The notes under the pieces were generated by a model. It did no database searches, was not told the origin of the DNA, and saw only the letters and a list, made by a program, of their open reading frames with translations. From the sequence record KC579452: 47,285 nucleotides of DNA; one strand, given 5' to 3'. Of this stretch, positions 37,811 through 44,032 are shown in pieces (position 1 is the first letter of the stretch; each line of letters starts with the position of its first letter). The position numbers and the translations under genes were made by a program. Source of the DNA: Escherichia phage phiKP26.

Positions 37811-38947
37811 ATGTCTATAGCTAAAATCACCAACGAAGAGTTAAAGCAAGAACTGGCTAACGGTATGACTAACAAGGCAATCGCAGAGAAGTACGGTATG
37901 AATATTCGTAACGTAGAGCTGCGTCGCAGCAAGTTGGCTAAGGCTGGGGATGGTCACGGTCGCGATGTGAGTAACCTAATTCCTCAGGGCTACATGGTTA
38001 AAGGTGTATCTAGCCTTGTTGATAATGATGGCAATGTGAAGTTGCAATGGGTTAAGTCCTCTATTGATGCAGAGAAGCTTGAGGAGATGATGAATCAAGC
38101 GCGAGAGGCATTCTCTAGCGAGCTACCAAANGAAAAAGCAGTTAAATCTGAAGGTCTGAATTTTGATGAAGATACTTTAGCTATGTATCCAGTATTTGAC
38201 CTTCACATTGGCGCAATGGCCCACAAGCATGAGTGCGGAGAAAACTACGACACAGCAACGGCAGAGAAAGTAATGAACGATTATTTTGACTACGCCGTAC
38301 AGAAATCTCCAAATTCAAAGAATGCTGTACTAGTGCTAGGAGGTGATCTGCTTCATTATGATTCTTTGGAAGCCAAAACTCCAGCCAGTGGTCACATCCT
38401 GGACAGTGACAGTCGCTACGCCAAGATTGTTTATGTTTGCATTCGAGCGGTTCGCCGCGCAATTCGAAACATGCTTAGCAAACATGAAAACGTAGAGGTT
38501 AAAGTTATATCTGGTAATCATGATGAAAGTGGTATGGTTTGGTTGCGGGCTGCGCTTGCTGCATTTTATGAGGAAGAGCCACGCGTTAGTATTGATGTTA
38601 GTCCCGCGGCAATGATGGTAACTAAGTTTGGTTCTACAATGCTTGGTTTCACTCACGGGCATCAAATGCGTAAAGCTGATACTCGCCTTTCGGTTATGGC
38701 TACTGACTGGCGACGTGACTTTGGTTTAAGTGATTATGTATACACCCACTCAGGCCACTGGCATTCACAGAAGATTACAGAGACAAATCTTGGTATTGAT
38801 GAGGTTCATGGTCAGCTTGGTTCACCAGATGCATATAGTGCGAATGGCGGGTGGCGCTCACAAAGGCAGGCTGCGGTAATCATATATCATAAAGAGTTTG
38901 GTGAGGTTGGTCGTTTTATCTGTCGCCCAGAAATGTTTAATAANTAG
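37811..38947 (+). CDS. calcineurin-like metallophosphoesterase with N-terminal HTH-like domain
   Basis: 378 aa; metallophosphatase motifs in order (DLHIG, GGDLLHYD, GNHDE, GHQ, HSGHWH); N-terminal ~50 aa HTH-like. Confidence 0.65.
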   Translation: MSIAKITNEELKQELANGMTNKAIAEKYGMNIRNVELRRSKLAKAGDGHGRDVSNLIPQGYMVKGVSSLVDNDGNVKLQWVKSSIDAEKLEEMMNQAREAFSSELPXEKAVKSEGLNFDEDTLAMYPVFDLHIGAMAHKHECGENYDTATAEKVMNDYFDYAVQKSPNSKNAVLVLGGDLLHYDSLEAKTPASGHILDSDSRYAKIVYVCIRAVRRAIRNMLSKHENVEVKVISGNHDESGMVWLRAALAAFYEEEPRVSIDVSPAAMMVTKFGSTMLGFTHGHQMRKADTRLSVMATDWRRDFGLSDYVYTHSGHWHSQKITETNLGIDEVHGQLGSPDAYSANGGWRSQRQAAVIIYHKEFGEVGRFICRPEMFNX

Positions 38948-39022
38948 CACAAATAGTCAAGAAACTACCAGAAAAAGCAGATGGTGGCAATTCAAACAAA
39001 TGAAAAAGCTAGATGAATNNGA

Positions 39023-39214
39023 ATGACTTGCGGAAATATTGAGATGAATTGGTTCAAGAAAGAAATCAAATGGAAAGAAATGTTAAGCATAAAGAGGAAG
39101 GTGGGGATGGGGATAACAGGAGTTATTNATTATAGTGAGTGTTTCAACGACGCGGTATTGGCAAGGANGAAAGCTGAATCTGAATACTCATTTCATGAAA
39201 ATCACGGAAANTAG
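39023..39214 (+). CDS. hypothetical protein
   Basis: 63-aa ORF; Ns within. Confidence 0.3.
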   Translation: MTCGNIEMNWFKKEIKWKEMLSIKRKVGMGITGVIXYSECFNDAVLARXKAESEYSFHENHGX

Positions 39215-39254
39215 CACGAATTGCTAAAACACAAATCAAAAGATGGGGTATATT
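39212..39254 (+). promoter_or_regulatory. palindrome/-10 promoter-like element
   Basis: tagcacgaattgcta-N22-tatatt-tactccatcaaa...; upstream of CDS 39288-39473. Confidence 0.4.
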
Positions 39255-39473: not shown

Positions 39474-39661
39474 TGTTGCAAACAATTAAAGCTGATATGG
39501 TAAAGGTGGGTGATGAGGTTTTGTTCTCAAATTGCCAACGGCAAAAAGTTAAGGCCACAAGCCTTGAGTATTACCCTAGCTGTACGTTCGTAATGATTAA
39601 GACCATGGGCGGTAACTGCTTCCCAATTAATGTAAACACACTTATTTGCGTAAACCGTTAA
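39473..39661 (+). CDS. hypothetical protein
   Basis: 62-aa ORF overlapping the upstream stop (TAATG). Confidence 0.4.
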   Translation: MLQTIKADMVKVGDEVLFSNCQRQKVKATSLEYYPSCTFVMIKTMGGNCFPINVNTLICVNR

Positions 39662-39873
39662 GAGATTATCAAAATGACTAAATTATTCTGCGTTAGCAAC
39701 AAATCAAAATCACTGCCTTTCACTGTAAACAACCCTTACAGTGGTGAGTACCAGGGGGATGGTAATTACAAGATTTATGGAGATGACATGACTTGGATCT
39801 TCACCCCGATTGATGGAGAATTGGTGGAATTCATTATCGCAGACTAACTTATAAGAAACATCAACTTGAAAAC

Positions 39874-39900
39874 AGGCGGCCTTTAAGGCTGCCTTTTTTN
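39874..39900 (+). terminator. rho-independent terminator
   Basis: ggcggcc-ttta-aggctgcc hairpin followed by a T6 run, before the lysis cassette. Confidence 0.65.
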
Positions 39901-39962
39901 CGTTTATGTCAAAGTTTAATATCTGGTATTATTTAATCAAATCAACTTAAAGAGGCCGCAAC

Positions 39963-40178
39963 ATGAAGCATTTCTATGACGCAGCCGCCTTATCCGGTAG
40001 CGGAGTAGCTATGGGCGGCGGTTTATCTGACAACACAATCATCGGCATTATCGGCTTAGTTATCGCCGTATGCTTTGGNATTTTTGGCGCATGGCTGCGA
40101 TGGCGTGACAGTAAGGCGCTCCATAAAGCACTTGAGGATGGTGACATTCGAGAGGCAATGAGAATCAGGAGTAAATGA
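39963..40178 (+). CDS. holin
   Basis: 71 aa; hydrophobic core IIGIIGLVIAVCF, charged C-terminus; directly upstream of the endolysin with ATGA overlap. Confidence 0.6.
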   Translation: MKHFYDAAALSGSGVAMGGGLSDNTIIGIIGLVIAVCFXIFGAWLRWRDSKALHKALEDGDIREAMRIRSK

Positions 40179-40660
40179 TGAGCTTCAAGANTAAGGTCAT
40201 TGGTTCGGCTGTGGCTGGAGCCATGGCATTAGCTATTCCGTTCCTGAATGAGCATGAAGGAGTTAAGTACAGGCCTTACAGAGATATTGCTGGAGTGTGG
40301 ACTGTTTGCCAGGGAATCACTGGTCCTGATGTTATTCTCGGTAAAAAGTNCACCCAGAGAGAATGCGATGCACTCCTGATGAAGCACCTTTCAATTCATA
40401 GAGCTGCTGTAGATAAAGCGCTGAAGGTTAATGTTCCAGTTAGCACCAGGGCGGCGCTGTACAGTTTTTCATTCAATGTTGGAACCAGTGCAATGCGCAA
40501 TTCAACTGCTATAAGGCGCATAAATCGTGGTGATATCAGGGGAGGATGCGAGGCGTTATCTATGTGGAATAAAATCAGCGTTGGTGGTAAGAAAGTTGTT
40601 AGCAAAGGCCTGGTTAACAGGCGTAACGCGGAGATTAAGCTATGCGTCTCGGAATTGTAG
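40175..40660 (+). CDS. SAR endolysin (T4-lysozyme-type muramidase with N-terminal signal-anchor-release segment)
   Basis: 161 aa; N-terminal Ala/Gly-rich weakly hydrophobic segment then an E...D/C...T catalytic arrangement (NEHEG...VCQGIT). Confidence 0.7.
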   Translation: MMSFKXKVIGSAVAGAMALAIPFLNEHEGVKYRPYRDIAGVWTVCQGITGPDVILGKKXTQRECDALLMKHLSIHRAAVDKALKVNVPVSTRAALYSFSFNVGTSAMRNSTAIRRINRGDIRGGCEALSMWNKISVGGKKVVSKGLVNRRNAEIKLCVSEL

Positions 40661-41046
40661 TTCTGGTAATTGCATCACTGACTGGCTGCTCTGCTATGTC
40701 AGCCATTTCTGATTTCTTACCAGCAAAGGATGGCGTCGAGGCAACGGCGCAGGTTGGCGAGTCAAACCAGAAAACTGGCGTTGGATTATCCAGCCAGACA
40801 GACAAATCTAGCTCAACAGAGAGCGATATGCGCAACTCAACTAACAGAGATGTAGATTCATCAAGCCATAAAAAGACTGCTGCTACGGGTCTCTCAGCTA
40901 ACACAATAACAGCTGAAAAGATTGAAATTCATAGCACTGAAAACTCTGGGGTTGACTCTTTAGTCTGGGGTATTCTGGCTGGATTAGTTTCAGGTTTGCT
41001 AACTTACTTCGCTTTAAGATTCGCAGGAAACAAAAANGGAGCCTAA
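40642..41046 (+). CDS. unimolecular spanin candidate (lipobox plus C-terminal transmembrane segment)
   Basis: 134 aa; lipobox LTGC at residues 13-16; C-terminal TMD LVWGILAGLVSGLLTYFAL; overlaps the endolysin 3' end. Confidence 0.6.
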   Translation: MRLGIVVLVIASLTGCSAMSAISDFLPAKDGVEATAQVGESNQKTGVGLSSQTDKSSSTESDMRNSTNRDVDSSSHKKTAATGLSANTITAEKIEIHSTENSGVDSLVWGILAGLVSGLLTYFALRFAGNKXGA

Positions 41047-41059
41047 TGGCTCCTTTATT

Positions 41060-41395
41060 TTACGCGAACAGTTGGTCGTCTGTCATTTCTTTNATGGTCA
41101 TCATCTCATTGGTGTACTTATCACTCTCACCTCCGAGGCACCTAAAGCTAAAACCGAATGGTCGCTTCGTGCTTCCTTTGCTCCAGTAACTGCCATTAAC
41201 TCCATCGATGTAACCTTCAGTCATGCATCTTGCCAGAAACTCCTTTGACGCAGATGATGCAAAGTAACGCGCATTAACTCCAGCTGCCTTAGCCATTCTT
41301 TCACATTCTTTGTGGCGGTAAATGAATACCGCCAGGTGCTGCCTGTTAAACTTTTCGTAGCTCTCGCAGAACTTGAACACATCAAGGATGAACAT
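41060..41395 (-). CDS. hypothetical protein
   Basis: 111-aa ORF, last gene of the minus-strand operon. Confidence 0.4.
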   Translation of the reverse strand: MFILDVFKFCESYEKFNRQHLAVFIYRHKECERMAKAAGVNARYFASSASKEFLARCMTEGYIDGVNGSYWSKGSTKRPFGFSFRCLGGESDKYTNEMMTXKEMTDDQLFA

Positions 41396-41399
41396 TTAA

Positions 41400-42989
41400 T
41401 TACCCCAGCAGCCGTGGATTGATATATACCTTGTCACCAATCAGGCAGGTATAGTTTTTATCATCAAGCATCGGGAGTAAGTGGTCTTTAATTTTAGCCA
41501 TAACACCAGCCTGTGACTCGAAAGGTCGAACCTTACGCGCAGCTTCATAAAGTGAGCGCAAACCCACAACTCCTTTACTGTTCTTGCCTTGCTTGATAAG
41601 GATATCAATTAACTTGTTCATCTCAGCGTTATCGCCAGCATGACCAGCTGCGTTAGCAGAAGATAAGTAAGTCTTGCTAAGTTCTTCAAACATCAATAAA
41701 GCCTCCTGCATCGTTTCCAGTCCAATCTCCCTGGACTTCTGCGGACTACCGCCATTTGGATTAAACCAGTTACGTATGGTGTGAAGAACGGCAGCAAGGC
41801 GAATAACCTGCTTATCCATTTTACCTAGTGCGCCACGGAGCATTGTGTGTGAATACTTGCCGCCATCCGCAAGGTGTGGCTCCATTTCCTGTCGAGCACG
41901 GTTAAGGTGCTTCATTGCTGAGTTACTAATAGTCAACTTCACATCTTGCTCACTCATAATTTCATGAACAAGACGGAAGTAATCAGCCTTCAACGCTCCG
42001 TCAATCGGCTCATATGTTGACTCGCCATTATCATCGACGAAAACACGCTCACCAAGGAATGACTTTTCACGCACAAGCAAGAAACGTTCGGATACACCAA
42101 TACCGCGAGCACCAGCATTCATGATTGCGACTATTGTTTCATCCTGCGCAATTACAGAAATACACCCCATAGCAATAAAGCTCATGTTGTTCTCTGCGTT
42201 CGCACGCGCGATAGATACGTTACCAGCATCCCAGGCCTTAAGTACCAGTTCGCTGTTTGTTTNCTTTGTTCCATCACCATAGGTCATGCCAAGCAGTGAG
42301 TTGACGCTCGTCGCCTCATCCGAGATGACAGCGAAGCTACCCTGACGATGGTTAATGCGTGCCAGACCTTCAGGAGTAGTATCAGATACAGGGAATACGA
42401 TGTCGCAAAGTTTCTCGAGCTTATCTTCCAGCTCCTCCTTCTCCTCAAACAAACCAGCCATCTCAGAAGGCGACTTCTCCTGCTTCATTTCTTTAGCCAG
42501 AGCCGACAGCTTGGCCATAATCTTTTTACGGTCACGCTTACGCAGATCGTTTAGTCGCTCAGTCTCTGCAATCATTGGAGCCAGAGACAGCGAGTTAATG
42601 GCGGATTTACCAGTTGATGGAGGCTGGCTGGTCACTACATACAGTGATGTTGGTTGTTGAGTTCCGTGATACTCAACCGTAAAGCGACCTAACATAGCTG
42701 CCGAGATGCAACCAAGGAAGTGCATATAAGCAGATGATTCAGGAAACTGAACAGAACGAGCAATGTTGCTTGATAGTTTGCCAACTACATCATAGTCGTT
42801 ACCAAGCGAGATAACAGGATACTTGTCGCCAGTAGAATCAATCTCAACCGGAGCTTTCCAGAATGATGCGCTCTGGCGATAACCGTTCGCATTAATAGCA
42901 ACACGTAAAGGAGGTAATCCATCCTGAGCGGCAACAGCCATTACTTGTTCAACAGTCAATTTGTCATCATTAAAATCAAACATTATCAT
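41400..42989 (-). CDS. P-loop NTPase of unknown function (Walker A-like PPSTGKS, Walker B-like AVISDEA)
   Basis: 529 aa; N- and C-terminal segments are paralogous to the short protein at 46389-46961. Confidence 0.5.
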   Translation of the reverse strand: MIMFDFNDDKLTVEQVMAVAAQDGLPPLRVAINANGYRQSASFWKAPVEIDSTGDKYPVISLGNDYDVVGKLSSNIARSVQFPESSAYMHFLGCISAAMLGRFTVEYHGTQQPTSLYVVTSQPPSTGKSAINSLSLAPMIAETERLNDLRKRDRKKIMAKLSALAKEMKQEKSPSEMAGLFEEKEELEDKLEKLCDIVFPVSDTTPEGLARINHRQGSFAVISDEATSVNSLLGMTYGDGTKXTNSELVLKAWDAGNVSIARANAENNMSFIAMGCISVIAQDETIVAIMNAGARGIGVSERFLLVREKSFLGERVFVDDNGESTYEPIDGALKADYFRLVHEIMSEQDVKLTISNSAMKHLNRARQEMEPHLADGGKYSHTMLRGALGKMDKQVIRLAAVLHTIRNWFNPNGGSPQKSREIGLETMQEALLMFEELSKTYLSSANAAGHAGDNAEMNKLIDILIKQGKNSKGVVGLRSLYEAARKVRPFESQAGVMAKIKDHLLPMLDDKNYTCLIGDKVYINPRLLG

Positions 42990-43678: not shown

Positions 43679-44032
43679 TCATTTGTATTGGCTCTCGAAT
43701 TTATAAGTTCCGCAAACAGTTGTAAATCCAACATCTTCAGAGCGAATCAGCGTCCATGAGTCACCATCTTCATCAAATATTTTACCAGCGTTCTGTCCAA
43801 GAGATGCGGTCATTTCTACCTGATAGCGACGACCTTGCTTGAATGACTTTGATACTCCTGATTTATGGTTAACAAATGTGACATAAAGAGTCTTAGTCTT
43901 GATGTAACGCCCCCGCTCAGTGAGATTTTGCCATTTACCATGAATCTTGATTTGCTCAATACCATCTTTAACGCGAGCTTTAAACAGATTGTTATCTGAG
44001 CTGATCCAGTTTTTAGTGATAGTGGTAGCCAT
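43679..44032 (-). CDS. hypothetical protein
   Basis: 117-aa ORF in the minus-strand small-gene island. Confidence 0.4.
   Translation of the reverse strand: MATTITKNWISSDNNLFKARVKDGIEQIKIHGKWQNLTERGRYIKTKTLYVTFVNHKSGVSKSFKQGRRYQVEMTASLGQNAGKIFDEDGDSWTLIRSEDVGFTTVCGTYKFESQYK

Follow-up and report, generated by a model that had tools for sequence, protein, structure and literature searches.

The lysis cassette of Escherichia phage phiKP26: a T1-like set with a predicted single-gene spanin

Three overlapping genes on the + strand of Escherichia phage phiKP26, at positions 39963-41046 of the window (the whole 47,285-nucleotide stretch of record KC579452), raise the question of whether a complete lysis cassette with one spanin gene, instead of the usual two, is found there. 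The genes code for a 71-aa holin, a GH24 lysozyme of 160 or 161 aa, and a 134-aa protein. The limits of the cassette are exact, with the holin ATG at 39963 and the stop codon of the 134-aa open reading frame (ORF) ending at 41046. The answer given here is read from gene content, homology, synteny, sequence motifs, and the absence of a second spanin gene.

A T1-like cassette in a Rogunavirus

The first-pass annotation had read the locus as a holin, a SAR-type endolysin, and a single-gene spanin, and this is borne out by profile matches, by homology to phage T1, and by synteny. The matches of the cassette proteins are far beyond chance (Table 1) and amount to more than ORF patterns. The holin, endolysin, and spanin are syntenic homologs of T1 gp13 (37% identity, E = 2e-16), gp12 (51%), and gp11 (36% over 117 aa, E = 1e-15 in BLASTP). 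The phiKP26 locus and T1 have a common gene order, exonuclease-(HNH)-DUF7244-holin-endolysin-spanin, followed by a convergent helicase. Nothing in the analysis contradicts the reading of these genes as a lysis cassette.

Table 1. Features of the phiKP26 lysis locus (positions in the window)
Feature	Position	Strand	Evidence and remarks
57-aa DUF7244/standalone SH3-like protein, equivalent of T1 gp14	39674..39847	+	PF23896 7.4e-29; phrog_4788 6.7e-35
Intrinsic-terminator-like hairpin	39874..39894	+	9-bp stem with 6 G-C pairs, then T-run; closes the upstream transcription unit, 5' boundary of the cassette
Candidate extended -10 promoter element TGGTATTAT (weak evidence)	39924..39932	+	Present in phiKP26 and in Rogunavirus locus L003
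Holin ribosome-binding site (RBS) AAGAGG	39950-39955	+	7 nt before the ATG
Holin, 71 aa	39963..40178	+	phrog_2877 "holin" E = 7e-35, full length
GH24 (T4-lysozyme-type) endolysin, 161 aa	40175..40660	+	PF00959 Phage_lysozyme 1e-36; phrog_7 1.7e-54
Predicted unimolecular spanin, 134 aa, T1 gp11 homolog	40642..41046	+	phrog_1804 "Rz-like spanin" 4.3e-45, residues 1-132 of 134
Bidirectional terminator-like hairpin GGAGCC-TAAT-GGCTCC	41038..41053	.	T-runs on both strands; overlaps the spanin stop codon

Between 39600 and 41400, the DNA is identical to that of Escherichia phage C119 (Drexlerviridae; Rogunavirinae; Rogunavirus) with the exception of six masked N bases. There is no difference from C119 within the cassette; upstream, about 290 bp of the HNH endonuclease gene of C119 are missing from phiKP26. 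The lysis genes of the C119, phiJLA23, and Rogue1 group (NC_042046 gp45-gp47) are the same DNA, and they are annotated as holin, endolysin, and "Rz-like spanin" or "putative spanin." The phiKP26 cassette thus very probably serves lysis in a T1-like siphophage of the genus Rogunavirus, and it is essentially the cassette of C119.

The cassette is a standard set of T1-like coliphages (a small holin, a membrane-tethered lysozyme, and a single-protein u-spanin), already known, annotated, and catalogued. According to Kongari et al. 2018 (PMC6139136), the holin and endolysin of T1-family u-spanin cassettes are a pinholin and a SAR endolysin. The single-gene spanin had been described beforehand as an uncommon solution best known from T1. 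The link to T1 holds, the protein being a homolog of gp11, but "uncommon" is true only in a relative sense, as the holin-endolysin-spanin module is found in 508 of 522 Drexlerviridae genomes (PMC13164509).

The cassette matters little beyond correct annotation, and it opens no new question. Many GenBank and RefSeq records of T1-like phages still use "Rz1 protein" or "Rz-like spanin" for the last gene, which curators should name "unimolecular spanin (u-spanin)"; the label of the endolysin should read "SAR endolysin." A near-identical protein, the spanin of phiJLA23, already has an entry in the published spanin database, under the T1-family u-spanins.

One predicted spanin gene

By its sequence, the 134-aa protein is a unimolecular spanin of the T1 gp11 family. 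The lipobox LTGC and the C-terminal transmembrane helix claimed in the first-pass annotation are both present on formal scanning. The lipoprotein signal occupies residues 1-16 (nt 40642-40689, MRLGIVVLVIAS-LTGC), with R2 in the n-region, an h-region of Kyte-Doolittle (KD) mean 2.5, and the codon of the lipid-bearing Cys16 at 40687-40689. The predicted transmembrane domain (TMD) spans about residues 107-126 (nt 40960-41019; 107-LVWGILAGLVSGLLTYFAL-125; KD 1.96) and is followed by the basic tail RFAGNKKGA. Between the two anchors, residues 17 to about 106 form a putative periplasmic domain devoid of cysteine, Cys16 being the only cysteine of the protein. In the Lol pathway, lipoproteins lacking an Asp at position +2 are sorted to the outer membrane. 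The residues after Cys16 are Ser (+2) and Ala (+3), and since Ser at +2 is no Lol-avoidance signal, the protein is predicted to be sorted to the outer membrane.

A single-sequence AlphaFold2 model has helices only at residues 2-23 and 102-129, in agreement with the two anchors, and it is informative for these terminal helices only, its overall confidence being low (pLDDT 59, pTM 0.26). The helix at 102-129 has the highest pLDDT of the model, and residues 24-101 show neither helix nor strands, with low confidence (pLDDT about 46-58). No Pfam family was found for the periplasmic domain. A match of the protein to Pfam Dsc3_C was rejected as a chance hit below threshold (15.9 bits for a cut-off of 25).

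A two-component spanin would require an Rz1-like gene embedded in, overlapping, or adjacent to the gene of the 134-aa protein, which would then be only one of two partners. This is what the labels "Rz1 protein" or "Rz-like spanin" in the GenBank records of close relatives suggest, and two-component spanins are the usual type in phages of Gram-negative hosts (528 vs 58, PMC6139136). The absence of an embedded Rz1-like ORF had been set beforehand as a check. All ATG, GTG, and TTG starts in the six frames of 39600-41400 were scanned for ORFs of at least 20 aa having a lipobox within the first 35 residues. Apart from the 134-aa gene, the only hit was a 20-aa ORF on the minus strand, and thus no embedded or adjacent o-spanin or Rz1-like ORF was found in that region. 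The 20-aa ORF is a chance occurrence, its N-terminus being nonhydrophobic (KD -0.07) and hence unable to serve as a signal peptide. No second lipobox ORF with a hydrophobic N-terminus is thus available as a partner, the 134-aa protein bears both anchors itself, and beyond its gene, past a terminator, come convergent minus-strand genes. The single-gene layout is also that of 25 of 27 relatives, and the "Rz1" labels reflect annotation habit rather than evidence. A two-component spanin at this locus is therefore extremely improbable.

The assignment of the 134-aa protein as a u-spanin is reinforced by its relatives. It is of the T1 kind: a homolog of gp11, the founding u-spanin, in the same gene order, and the two proteins align from the lipobox through the TMD. 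It is 99.3% identical to the phiJLA23 protein, which is named in the T1 gp11 u-spanin family in Table 5 of Kongari et al. 2018 (PMC6139136), together with proteins of Rogue1, JK06, AHP42, AHS24, AKS96, and e4-1c. In the supplement of the same work, the phiJLA23 protein is a USP of 134 aa without coiled coil; of its 90 periplasmic residues, 26 are predicted as beta and 6 as helix. Among 27 related viral loci, 25 keep both the lipobox and the C-terminal TMD. Each feature taken alone is kept in 26, the exceptions being L020 for the lipobox and L018 for the TMD, both of which look frameshifted. In none of the 27 is there a cysteine in the periplasmic domain or an Asp at +2. The lack of periplasmic cysteine is general for all 58 u-spanins (PMC6139136).

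The phiKP26 spanin and T1 gp11 are alike in length (134 and 133 aa), in lipobox (LTGC and LSGC), in Ser at +2, in the periplasmic motifs TAQVG and ANT..AE, in lacking periplasmic cysteine, and in ending with a TMD and a basic tail. In both phages, the gene closes the lysis cassette; a terminator comes next, and then a convergent helicase operon. They differ in the signal peptide, which is shorter in phiKP26 (Cys16 vs Cys22 in T1), and in the middle of the periplasmic domain (residues 49-76), which is richer in Ser, Thr, Asn, and Asp. The overlap between spanin and endolysin genes is 19 nt, whereas it is 1 nt in T1.

The comparison with Rz/Rz1 of lambda is one of function. The protein would do the same job, namely linking inner and outer membranes across the periplasm and disrupting the outer membrane after murein degradation, and gp11 indeed substitutes for Rz/Rz1 in lambda (PMC6139136). 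Unlike Rz/Rz1, it is one polypeptide with no embedded gene and no detectable sequence similarity, and its periplasmic domain lacks both predicted helix and the cysteines that would allow intermolecular disulfides.

T1-like phages also encode superinfection-exclusion lipoproteins such as Cor, and one might ask whether the 134-aa protein, whose periplasmic domain matches no Pfam family, is such a Cor/Llp-like or another envelope lipoprotein that lies after the endolysin by chance. The full-length homology is, however, to T1 gp11, which complements the Rz/Rz1 lysis defect of lambda (PMC6139136). The gene has its own RBS (GGAG at 40630-40633) within the endolysin gene, with which it shares the 19 nt of overlap at the 3' end, as one expects for translational coupling, and in 508 of 522 Drexlerviridae this gene likewise comes last in the cassette (PMC13164509). 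A C-terminal TMD on an outer-membrane lipoprotein is also the specific topological signature of a periplasm-spanning protein. An exclusion lipoprotein is thus hardly credible here, and the u-spanin reading is kept.

We know of no structure of a u-spanin. The family periplasmic domain is predicted to be beta-rich, and the membrane-fusion mechanism of u-spanins is itself a model (PMC6139136). A divergent Rogunavirus homolog, 36% identical to gp11, could for these reasons serve as a comparison partner in the study of u-spanins.

Endolysin and holin

The endolysin gene starts over the holin stop codon (ATGATGA), and two ATG codons are available. The AGGAG at 40167-40171 leaves a spacing of 6 nt to the second (40178) but of just 3 nt to the first, and both T1 gp12 and the Rogunavirus locus L003 begin at the equivalent of the second. 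Hence, the start is probably at 40178, giving a protein of 160 aa; residue numbers below are those of the 161-aa reading.

A weakly hydrophobic Ala/Gly-rich segment of the SAR type had been claimed at the N-terminus. It is seen at residues 8-24 (nt 40196-40246, VIGSAVAGAMALAIPFL), where hydrophobicity is moderate (KD mean 1.93 over 15 aa), and it aligns with the segment of the phage 21 endolysin R21. The segment contains 53% Gly, Ala, Ser, and Thr and no Cys, and it is preceded by K5 and K7. The catalytic triad, E28-x8-D37-x5-T43, follows closely, its Glu being 4 residues past the hydrophobic segment. A cysteine-free Gly/Ala-rich segment directly before the E-8-D-5-T triad is found in C119, in T1, and in 14 T1-like loci (those with a readable GH24 gene upstream of the spanin).

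The best PDB matches of the endolysin are R21 (3HDE/3HDF) and RrrD (4ZPU), the lysozyme of an E. coli cryptic prophage, with phmmer E-values of about 1e-38. R21 is the prototype of SAR endolysins and is experimentally characterized; its released segment becomes part of the active fold. The absence of cysteine in the SAR segment sets the R21 type apart from the disulfide-caged type of P1 Lyz. The phiKP26 protein has in common with R21 and RrrD the GH24 fold, the E-8-D-5-T triad, a length of about 160 aa, and a Gly/Ala-rich, cysteine-free, hydrophobic N-terminal segment. Unlike R21, it has an N-terminal region about 7 residues shorter (catalytic Glu at 28 vs 35), and its partners are a u-spanin and a T1-type holin, where R21 has S21 and Rz/Rz1. 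From the homology with R21, we infer that the protein is a SAR endolysin, which would be exported by Sec, tethered in an inactive state, and released by depolarization.

The segment might instead be a cleavable Sec signal peptide or a permanent anchor, in which case the timing of lysis would be independent of depolarization-triggered release. It is indeed short (about 17 residues), its AXA-like motif A16-M17-A18 could serve signal peptidase I, and T1 gp12 itself is described only as a "predicted" SAR endolysin (PMC11447400). The motif, however, is not conserved among T1-like endolysins (T1 has GAALTLTPT), and R21, whose alignment starts at residue 10 and thus inside the hydrophobic segment, also bears Ala-rich AXA-like strings. 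The catalytic Glu placed 4 residues after the segment matches the logic of R21, and the partner holin is small and pinholin-like. A cleaved or permanently anchored endolysin is thus unlikely, though less so than the two alternatives considered for the spanin, and a releasable SAR segment remains the preferred reading.

The 71-aa holin of the first-pass annotation is confirmed by its profile match. It has one strong TMD at about residues 25-45 (25-TIIGIIGLVIAVCFGIFGA, KD 2.56) and a clearly charged C-terminal tail. A Gly/Ala/Ser-rich N-terminal segment (residues 7-21, 7-AAALSGSGVAMGGGL) is only marginally hydrophobic as a candidate TMD1 (KD 1.15), and the T1 record annotates a single TMD in its holin. 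The Pfam search returned no family at E ≤ 1, and hence no Pfam holin family. Nor was homology found to a characterized pinholin family, the matches being phrog_2877, which groups T1-type holins, and a weak one to phrog_20 (2.4e-4). In the literature, T1-family holins are called pinholins (PMC6139136, PMC11447400, PMC13164509); the term is used in the papers on TLS and KanT1, and T1 gp13 is given as a class II pinholin (PMC11447400, PMC13164509). By analogy, the phiKP26 holin is probably a pinholin. Because of the weak TMD1, the single TMD of the T1 record, and the lack of a Pfam holin match, this assignment is the weakest link in the reading of the cassette: the protein may function as pinholins do, but membership in the S21 family is not demonstrated.

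Course of lysis and flanking signals

A course of lysis can be proposed in which, taken as a whole, we have high confidence. The cassette would be a compact unit bracketed by terminators, whose three translationally coupled genes act in sequence. The holin would build up in the inner membrane until, at a programmed time, small lesions collapse the proton-motive force. The endolysin would have been exported beforehand by Sec and kept inactive by its SAR segment at the periplasmic side of the inner membrane, where just 4 residues separate the catalytic Glu from the membrane segment. Depolarization would free this segment, and the enzyme would refold as R21 does and degrade the murein. The u-spanin would receive its lipid at Cys16 and go to the outer membrane, its C-terminal TMD remaining in the inner membrane, so that one polypeptide would cross the periplasm by passing through the murein mesh. 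Loss of the murein would leave the u-spanin free to move and collapse, and it may then fuse or disrupt the outer membrane, completing lysis. The parts of this scheme on SAR release, on a pinholin mode of action, and on membrane fusion follow what is described for homologs.

On the upstream side, the terminator-like hairpin is present at the same position in T1 (L002 42781-42807) and in all 15 T1-like loci that could be assessed, with at least 5 different stem sequences. A consensus scan found no full sigma-70 promoter before the holin gene, and the candidate element TGGTATTAT is absent from T1 and from other genera. The DUF7244/SH3 gene has been proposed as an accessory of the Drexlerviridae lysis module (PMC13164509). 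Because it lies upstream of the hairpin at 39874-39894, it is probably not cotranscribed with the cassette. Two bolder ideas may be mentioned, both of which we consider doubtful. Either the lysis genes of Drexlerviridae are timed by regulated read-through or antitermination from the replication/SH3 unit, or the DUF7244 gene is transcriptionally separate and unrelated to lysis. The second and weaker idea concerns the periplasmic domain of the Rogunavirus u-spanin, which is rich in Ser, Thr, and Asn: this domain may be disordered and act in a way unlike the beta-sheet-collapse model proposed for gp11.

On the downstream side, the bidirectional hairpin parts the cassette from the convergent genes of the minus strand, which are a 111-aa ORF (41060-41395) and then the helicase. 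In the T1 record, a terminator is annotated at the corresponding site (43966-43988).

A Probable Single-Gene Spanin

The 134-aa protein that ends the cassette matches phrog_1804, "Rz-like spanin," over residues 1–132 (4.3e-45); a Pfam match was below threshold and is attributable to chance. The first-pass annotation had taken it for a unimolecular spanin (u-spanin), a class defined by an N-terminal lipoylation signal together with a transmembrane domain (TMD) at the C-terminus (Kongari et al. 2018, PMC6139136), and both anchors are present. The lipobox (LTGC, with Cys16) follows R2 and a hydrophobic h-region (mean Kyte-Doolittle hydropathy, KD, of 2.5), and the TMD occupies residues 107–125 (KD 1.96 over 19 aa, summing to about 0 on the Hessa scale), with a basic tail directly C-terminal to it. 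In a single-sequence AlphaFold2 model the only helices are 2–23 and 102–129, the latter having the best pLDDT. The residue at +2 after Cys16 is Ser, which by the established Lol sorting rule means that the lipoprotein is predicted to be sorted to the outer membrane.

Two-component spanins have a Rz1-like outer-membrane partner, the o-spanin. A scan of the six frames of 39600–41400 for ORFs of ≥20 aa (ATG, GTG, or TTG starts) whose first 35 residues include a lipobox retrieved the 134-aa gene but no embedded or adjacent o-spanin. The one other match to the pattern, a minus-strand ORF of 20 aa, was rejected because its N-terminus is not hydrophobic. With lipobox and TMD present and a separate o-spanin absent from this stretch, the observation is confirmed and its interpretation as a u-spanin is supported; the cassette itself is already known.

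By megablast, 39600–41400 is 99.7% identical to Escherichia phage C119 (Drexlerviridae; Rogunavirinae; Rogunavirus, a T1-like siphophage), 99.5% to phiJLA23, and 88–91% to the Rogue1/AHP42/AKS96/e4-1c/JK06 group. Compared base by base with C119, it differs solely at six masked N (39900, 40079, 40191, 40350, 41037, and 41093), the window containing 149 such isolated N (0.3%), which give X residues in translations. The three C119 genes are labeled holin, endolysin, and "Rz-like spanin" in RefSeq. The phiJLA23 spanin is 99.3% identical to that of the window, a masked residue being the one difference, and is listed in the supplement of PMC6139136 as a 134-aa u-spanin without coiled coil, whose periplasmic domain of 90 residues has 6 predicted in helix and 26 in beta. 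The T1 family in Table 5 of that work has 28 proteins, including those of phiJLA23, vB_EcoS_Rogue1, JK06, AHP42, AHS24, AKS96, and e4-1c.

Endolysin, Holin, and Cassette Layout

The coordinates first proposed for the cassette are exact, and its three genes are consecutive on the + strand (see table). The holin and endolysin genes overlap in ATGATGA, and the spanin gene starts inside the 3′ end of the endolysin gene (19-nt overlap), with its own GGAG (40630–40633) 8 nt 5′ of the ATG. The endolysin ORF opens with two ATGs, at 40175 and 40178. Because an AGGAG (40167–40171) is suitably spaced for the second, and T1 gp12 and the Rogunavirus locus L003 begin with the corresponding Met, the endolysin probably starts at 40178 and has 160 aa; the 161-aa start annotated in C119 is thus probably one codon too long.

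Features of the lysis region (lysis gene coordinates from the ORF listing, raw sequence)
Feature	Position	Strand	Remarks
DUF7244 protein	39674-39847	+	57 aa; 7e-29
Terminator-like hairpin	39874-39894	+	5′ of the three lysis genes
Holin gene	39963-40178	+	71 aa
Endolysin gene	40175-40660	+	161 aa as ORF
Spanin gene	40642-41046	+	134 aa
Bidirectional terminator-like hairpin	41038-41053	both	overlaps spanin stop codon
111-aa ORF	41060-41395	-	C119 gp48; position of T1 gene 10

The endolysin belongs to PF00959 (Phage_lysozyme, 1e-36) and phrog_7. Its N-terminus had been described as a signal-anchor-release (SAR) segment, and a SAR-like stretch is indeed found at residues 8–24 (VIGSAVAGAMALAIPFL), moderately hydrophobic and 53% Gly/Ala/Ser/Thr, preceded by K5 and K7 and ending 4 residues before the catalytic E28. 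The nearest solved structures are RrrD (4ZPU, 9.6e-39) and R21, the phage 21 endolysin (3HDE, 4e-38; 3HDF), alignment starting at residue 10, within the hydrophobic segment. Cleavage of this segment by signal peptidase, to which the A16-M17-A18 motif would lend itself, is improbable, as the motif is not kept among homologs. What is shared by C119, T1, and the 14 T1-like loci with a readable GH24 gene upstream of the spanin is a cysteine-free Gly/Ala-rich hydrophobic segment immediately N-terminal to the E-8-D-5-T triad. The SAR reading also agrees with the prediction in the literature that T1 gp12 is a SAR endolysin.

Along its full 71 positions the holin matches phrog_2877 ("holin," 7e-35), and Pfam gave no family; most of the GH24-bearing loci have a holin of this type, of 71–80 aa. 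TMD2 is unambiguous and the putative TMD1 marginal (KD 1.15). T1-type holins are termed pinholins in the literature, but no homology to a characterized pinholin family was detected in Pfam, and this label is the weakest element of the assignment.

By analogy, triggering of the holin would depolarize the inner membrane, upon which the SAR endolysin, exported beforehand and tethered inactive, would be released, refold like R21, and degrade the murein. The u-spanin, threaded through the murein with its lipid anchor in the outer membrane and its TMD in the inner one, would then be freed to disrupt or fuse the outer membrane, a step that is a model even for T1 gp11 (PMC6139136).

Relation to T1 and Conservation

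In the T1 record, the DNA repair exonuclease is followed by an HNH endonuclease, small ORF 14, holin 13 (71 aa), endolysin 12 (162 aa), gene 11 (133 aa), a terminator, and then convergent gene 10 and the helicase; the window's lysis region has the same order. By BLASTP, the window proteins are 37% (holin, E=2e-16), 51% (endolysin, E=2e-56), and 36% (spanin, E=1e-15) identical to T1 gp13, gp12, and gp11. The gp11 alignment spans lipobox through C-terminal TMD, with SL-GCS, TAQVG, and ANT--AE motifs invariant. T1 gene 11 complements the lysis defect of lambda RzRz1, and all T1-family u-spanins but two are in pinholin plus SAR endolysin cassettes (PMC6139136). Of the 522 Drexlerviridae genomes examined in a 2026 study, 508 had the exonuclease-holin-endolysin-spanin module.

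Searching viral contigs with the C119+T1 alignment gave 27 loci (29–94% identity). Lipobox (LTGC, LSGC, VSGC, LGGC, or LCGC) and C-terminal hydrophobic stretch (KD 1.8–3.2) are both present in 25 of the 27 homologous ORFs, and none of the 27 has a cysteine in the periplasmic domain, as in the 58 u-spanins of PMC6139136 (0/58). The exceptions are two IMG/VR T1-like genomes, L018 (2501–2881), without the TMD, and L020 (2411–2794), without the lipoprotein signal. These look like frameshifts, probably sequencing errors of the kind discussed for phage ADB-2 in PMC6139136, a case that L020 resembles.

In ~44-kb phage contigs (L021–L029, ~1870–2880 in each locus), what precedes the phrog_1804 homolog (126–129 aa, with C-terminal TMD and an LGGC, LSGC, or LCGC lipobox) is not a GH24 lysozyme but a protein of unknown function, phrog_9732, and the u-spanin thus travels there in a different gene context.

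Flanking Genes and Hairpins

Terminator-like sites number 5 in ~2 kb around the cassette, against 1.6 expected from shuffled sequence. The downstream hairpin, a single 6-bp G+C-rich stem flanked by T-runs, would terminate transcription in both directions, from the spanin gene and from the 111-aa ORF convergent with it, for which Pfam gave no family; the genes downstream of the cassette are on the minus strand.

The upstream hairpin separates the holin from the gene of DUF7244, a "standalone SH3" for which a role as accessory to the lysis module of Drexlerviridae was put forward in 2026. T1 (L002) has an unannotated hairpin at the equivalent position (42781–42807), after the equivalent ORF (42583–42759), and all 15 T1-like loci assessed have one, the stems having at least five different sequences. 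This suggests either regulated read-through or separate transcription units, and the SH3 gene may therefore be transcribed apart from the lysis genes.

Further upstream, the exonuclease gene and the small ORFs of C119 are separated by an intact HNH endonuclease of 163 aa (L001 2124–2615; HNH_3, 1.6e-20, and AP2). The corresponding region of the window (38947–39243) is ~290 bp shorter and retains a C-terminal remnant, a 63-aa ORF (39023–39214) with no Pfam match; Rogue1 matches the window in the length of this region. Between genomes that are nearly identical elsewhere, a homing endonuclease seems to differ by presence or absence, or to have decayed.
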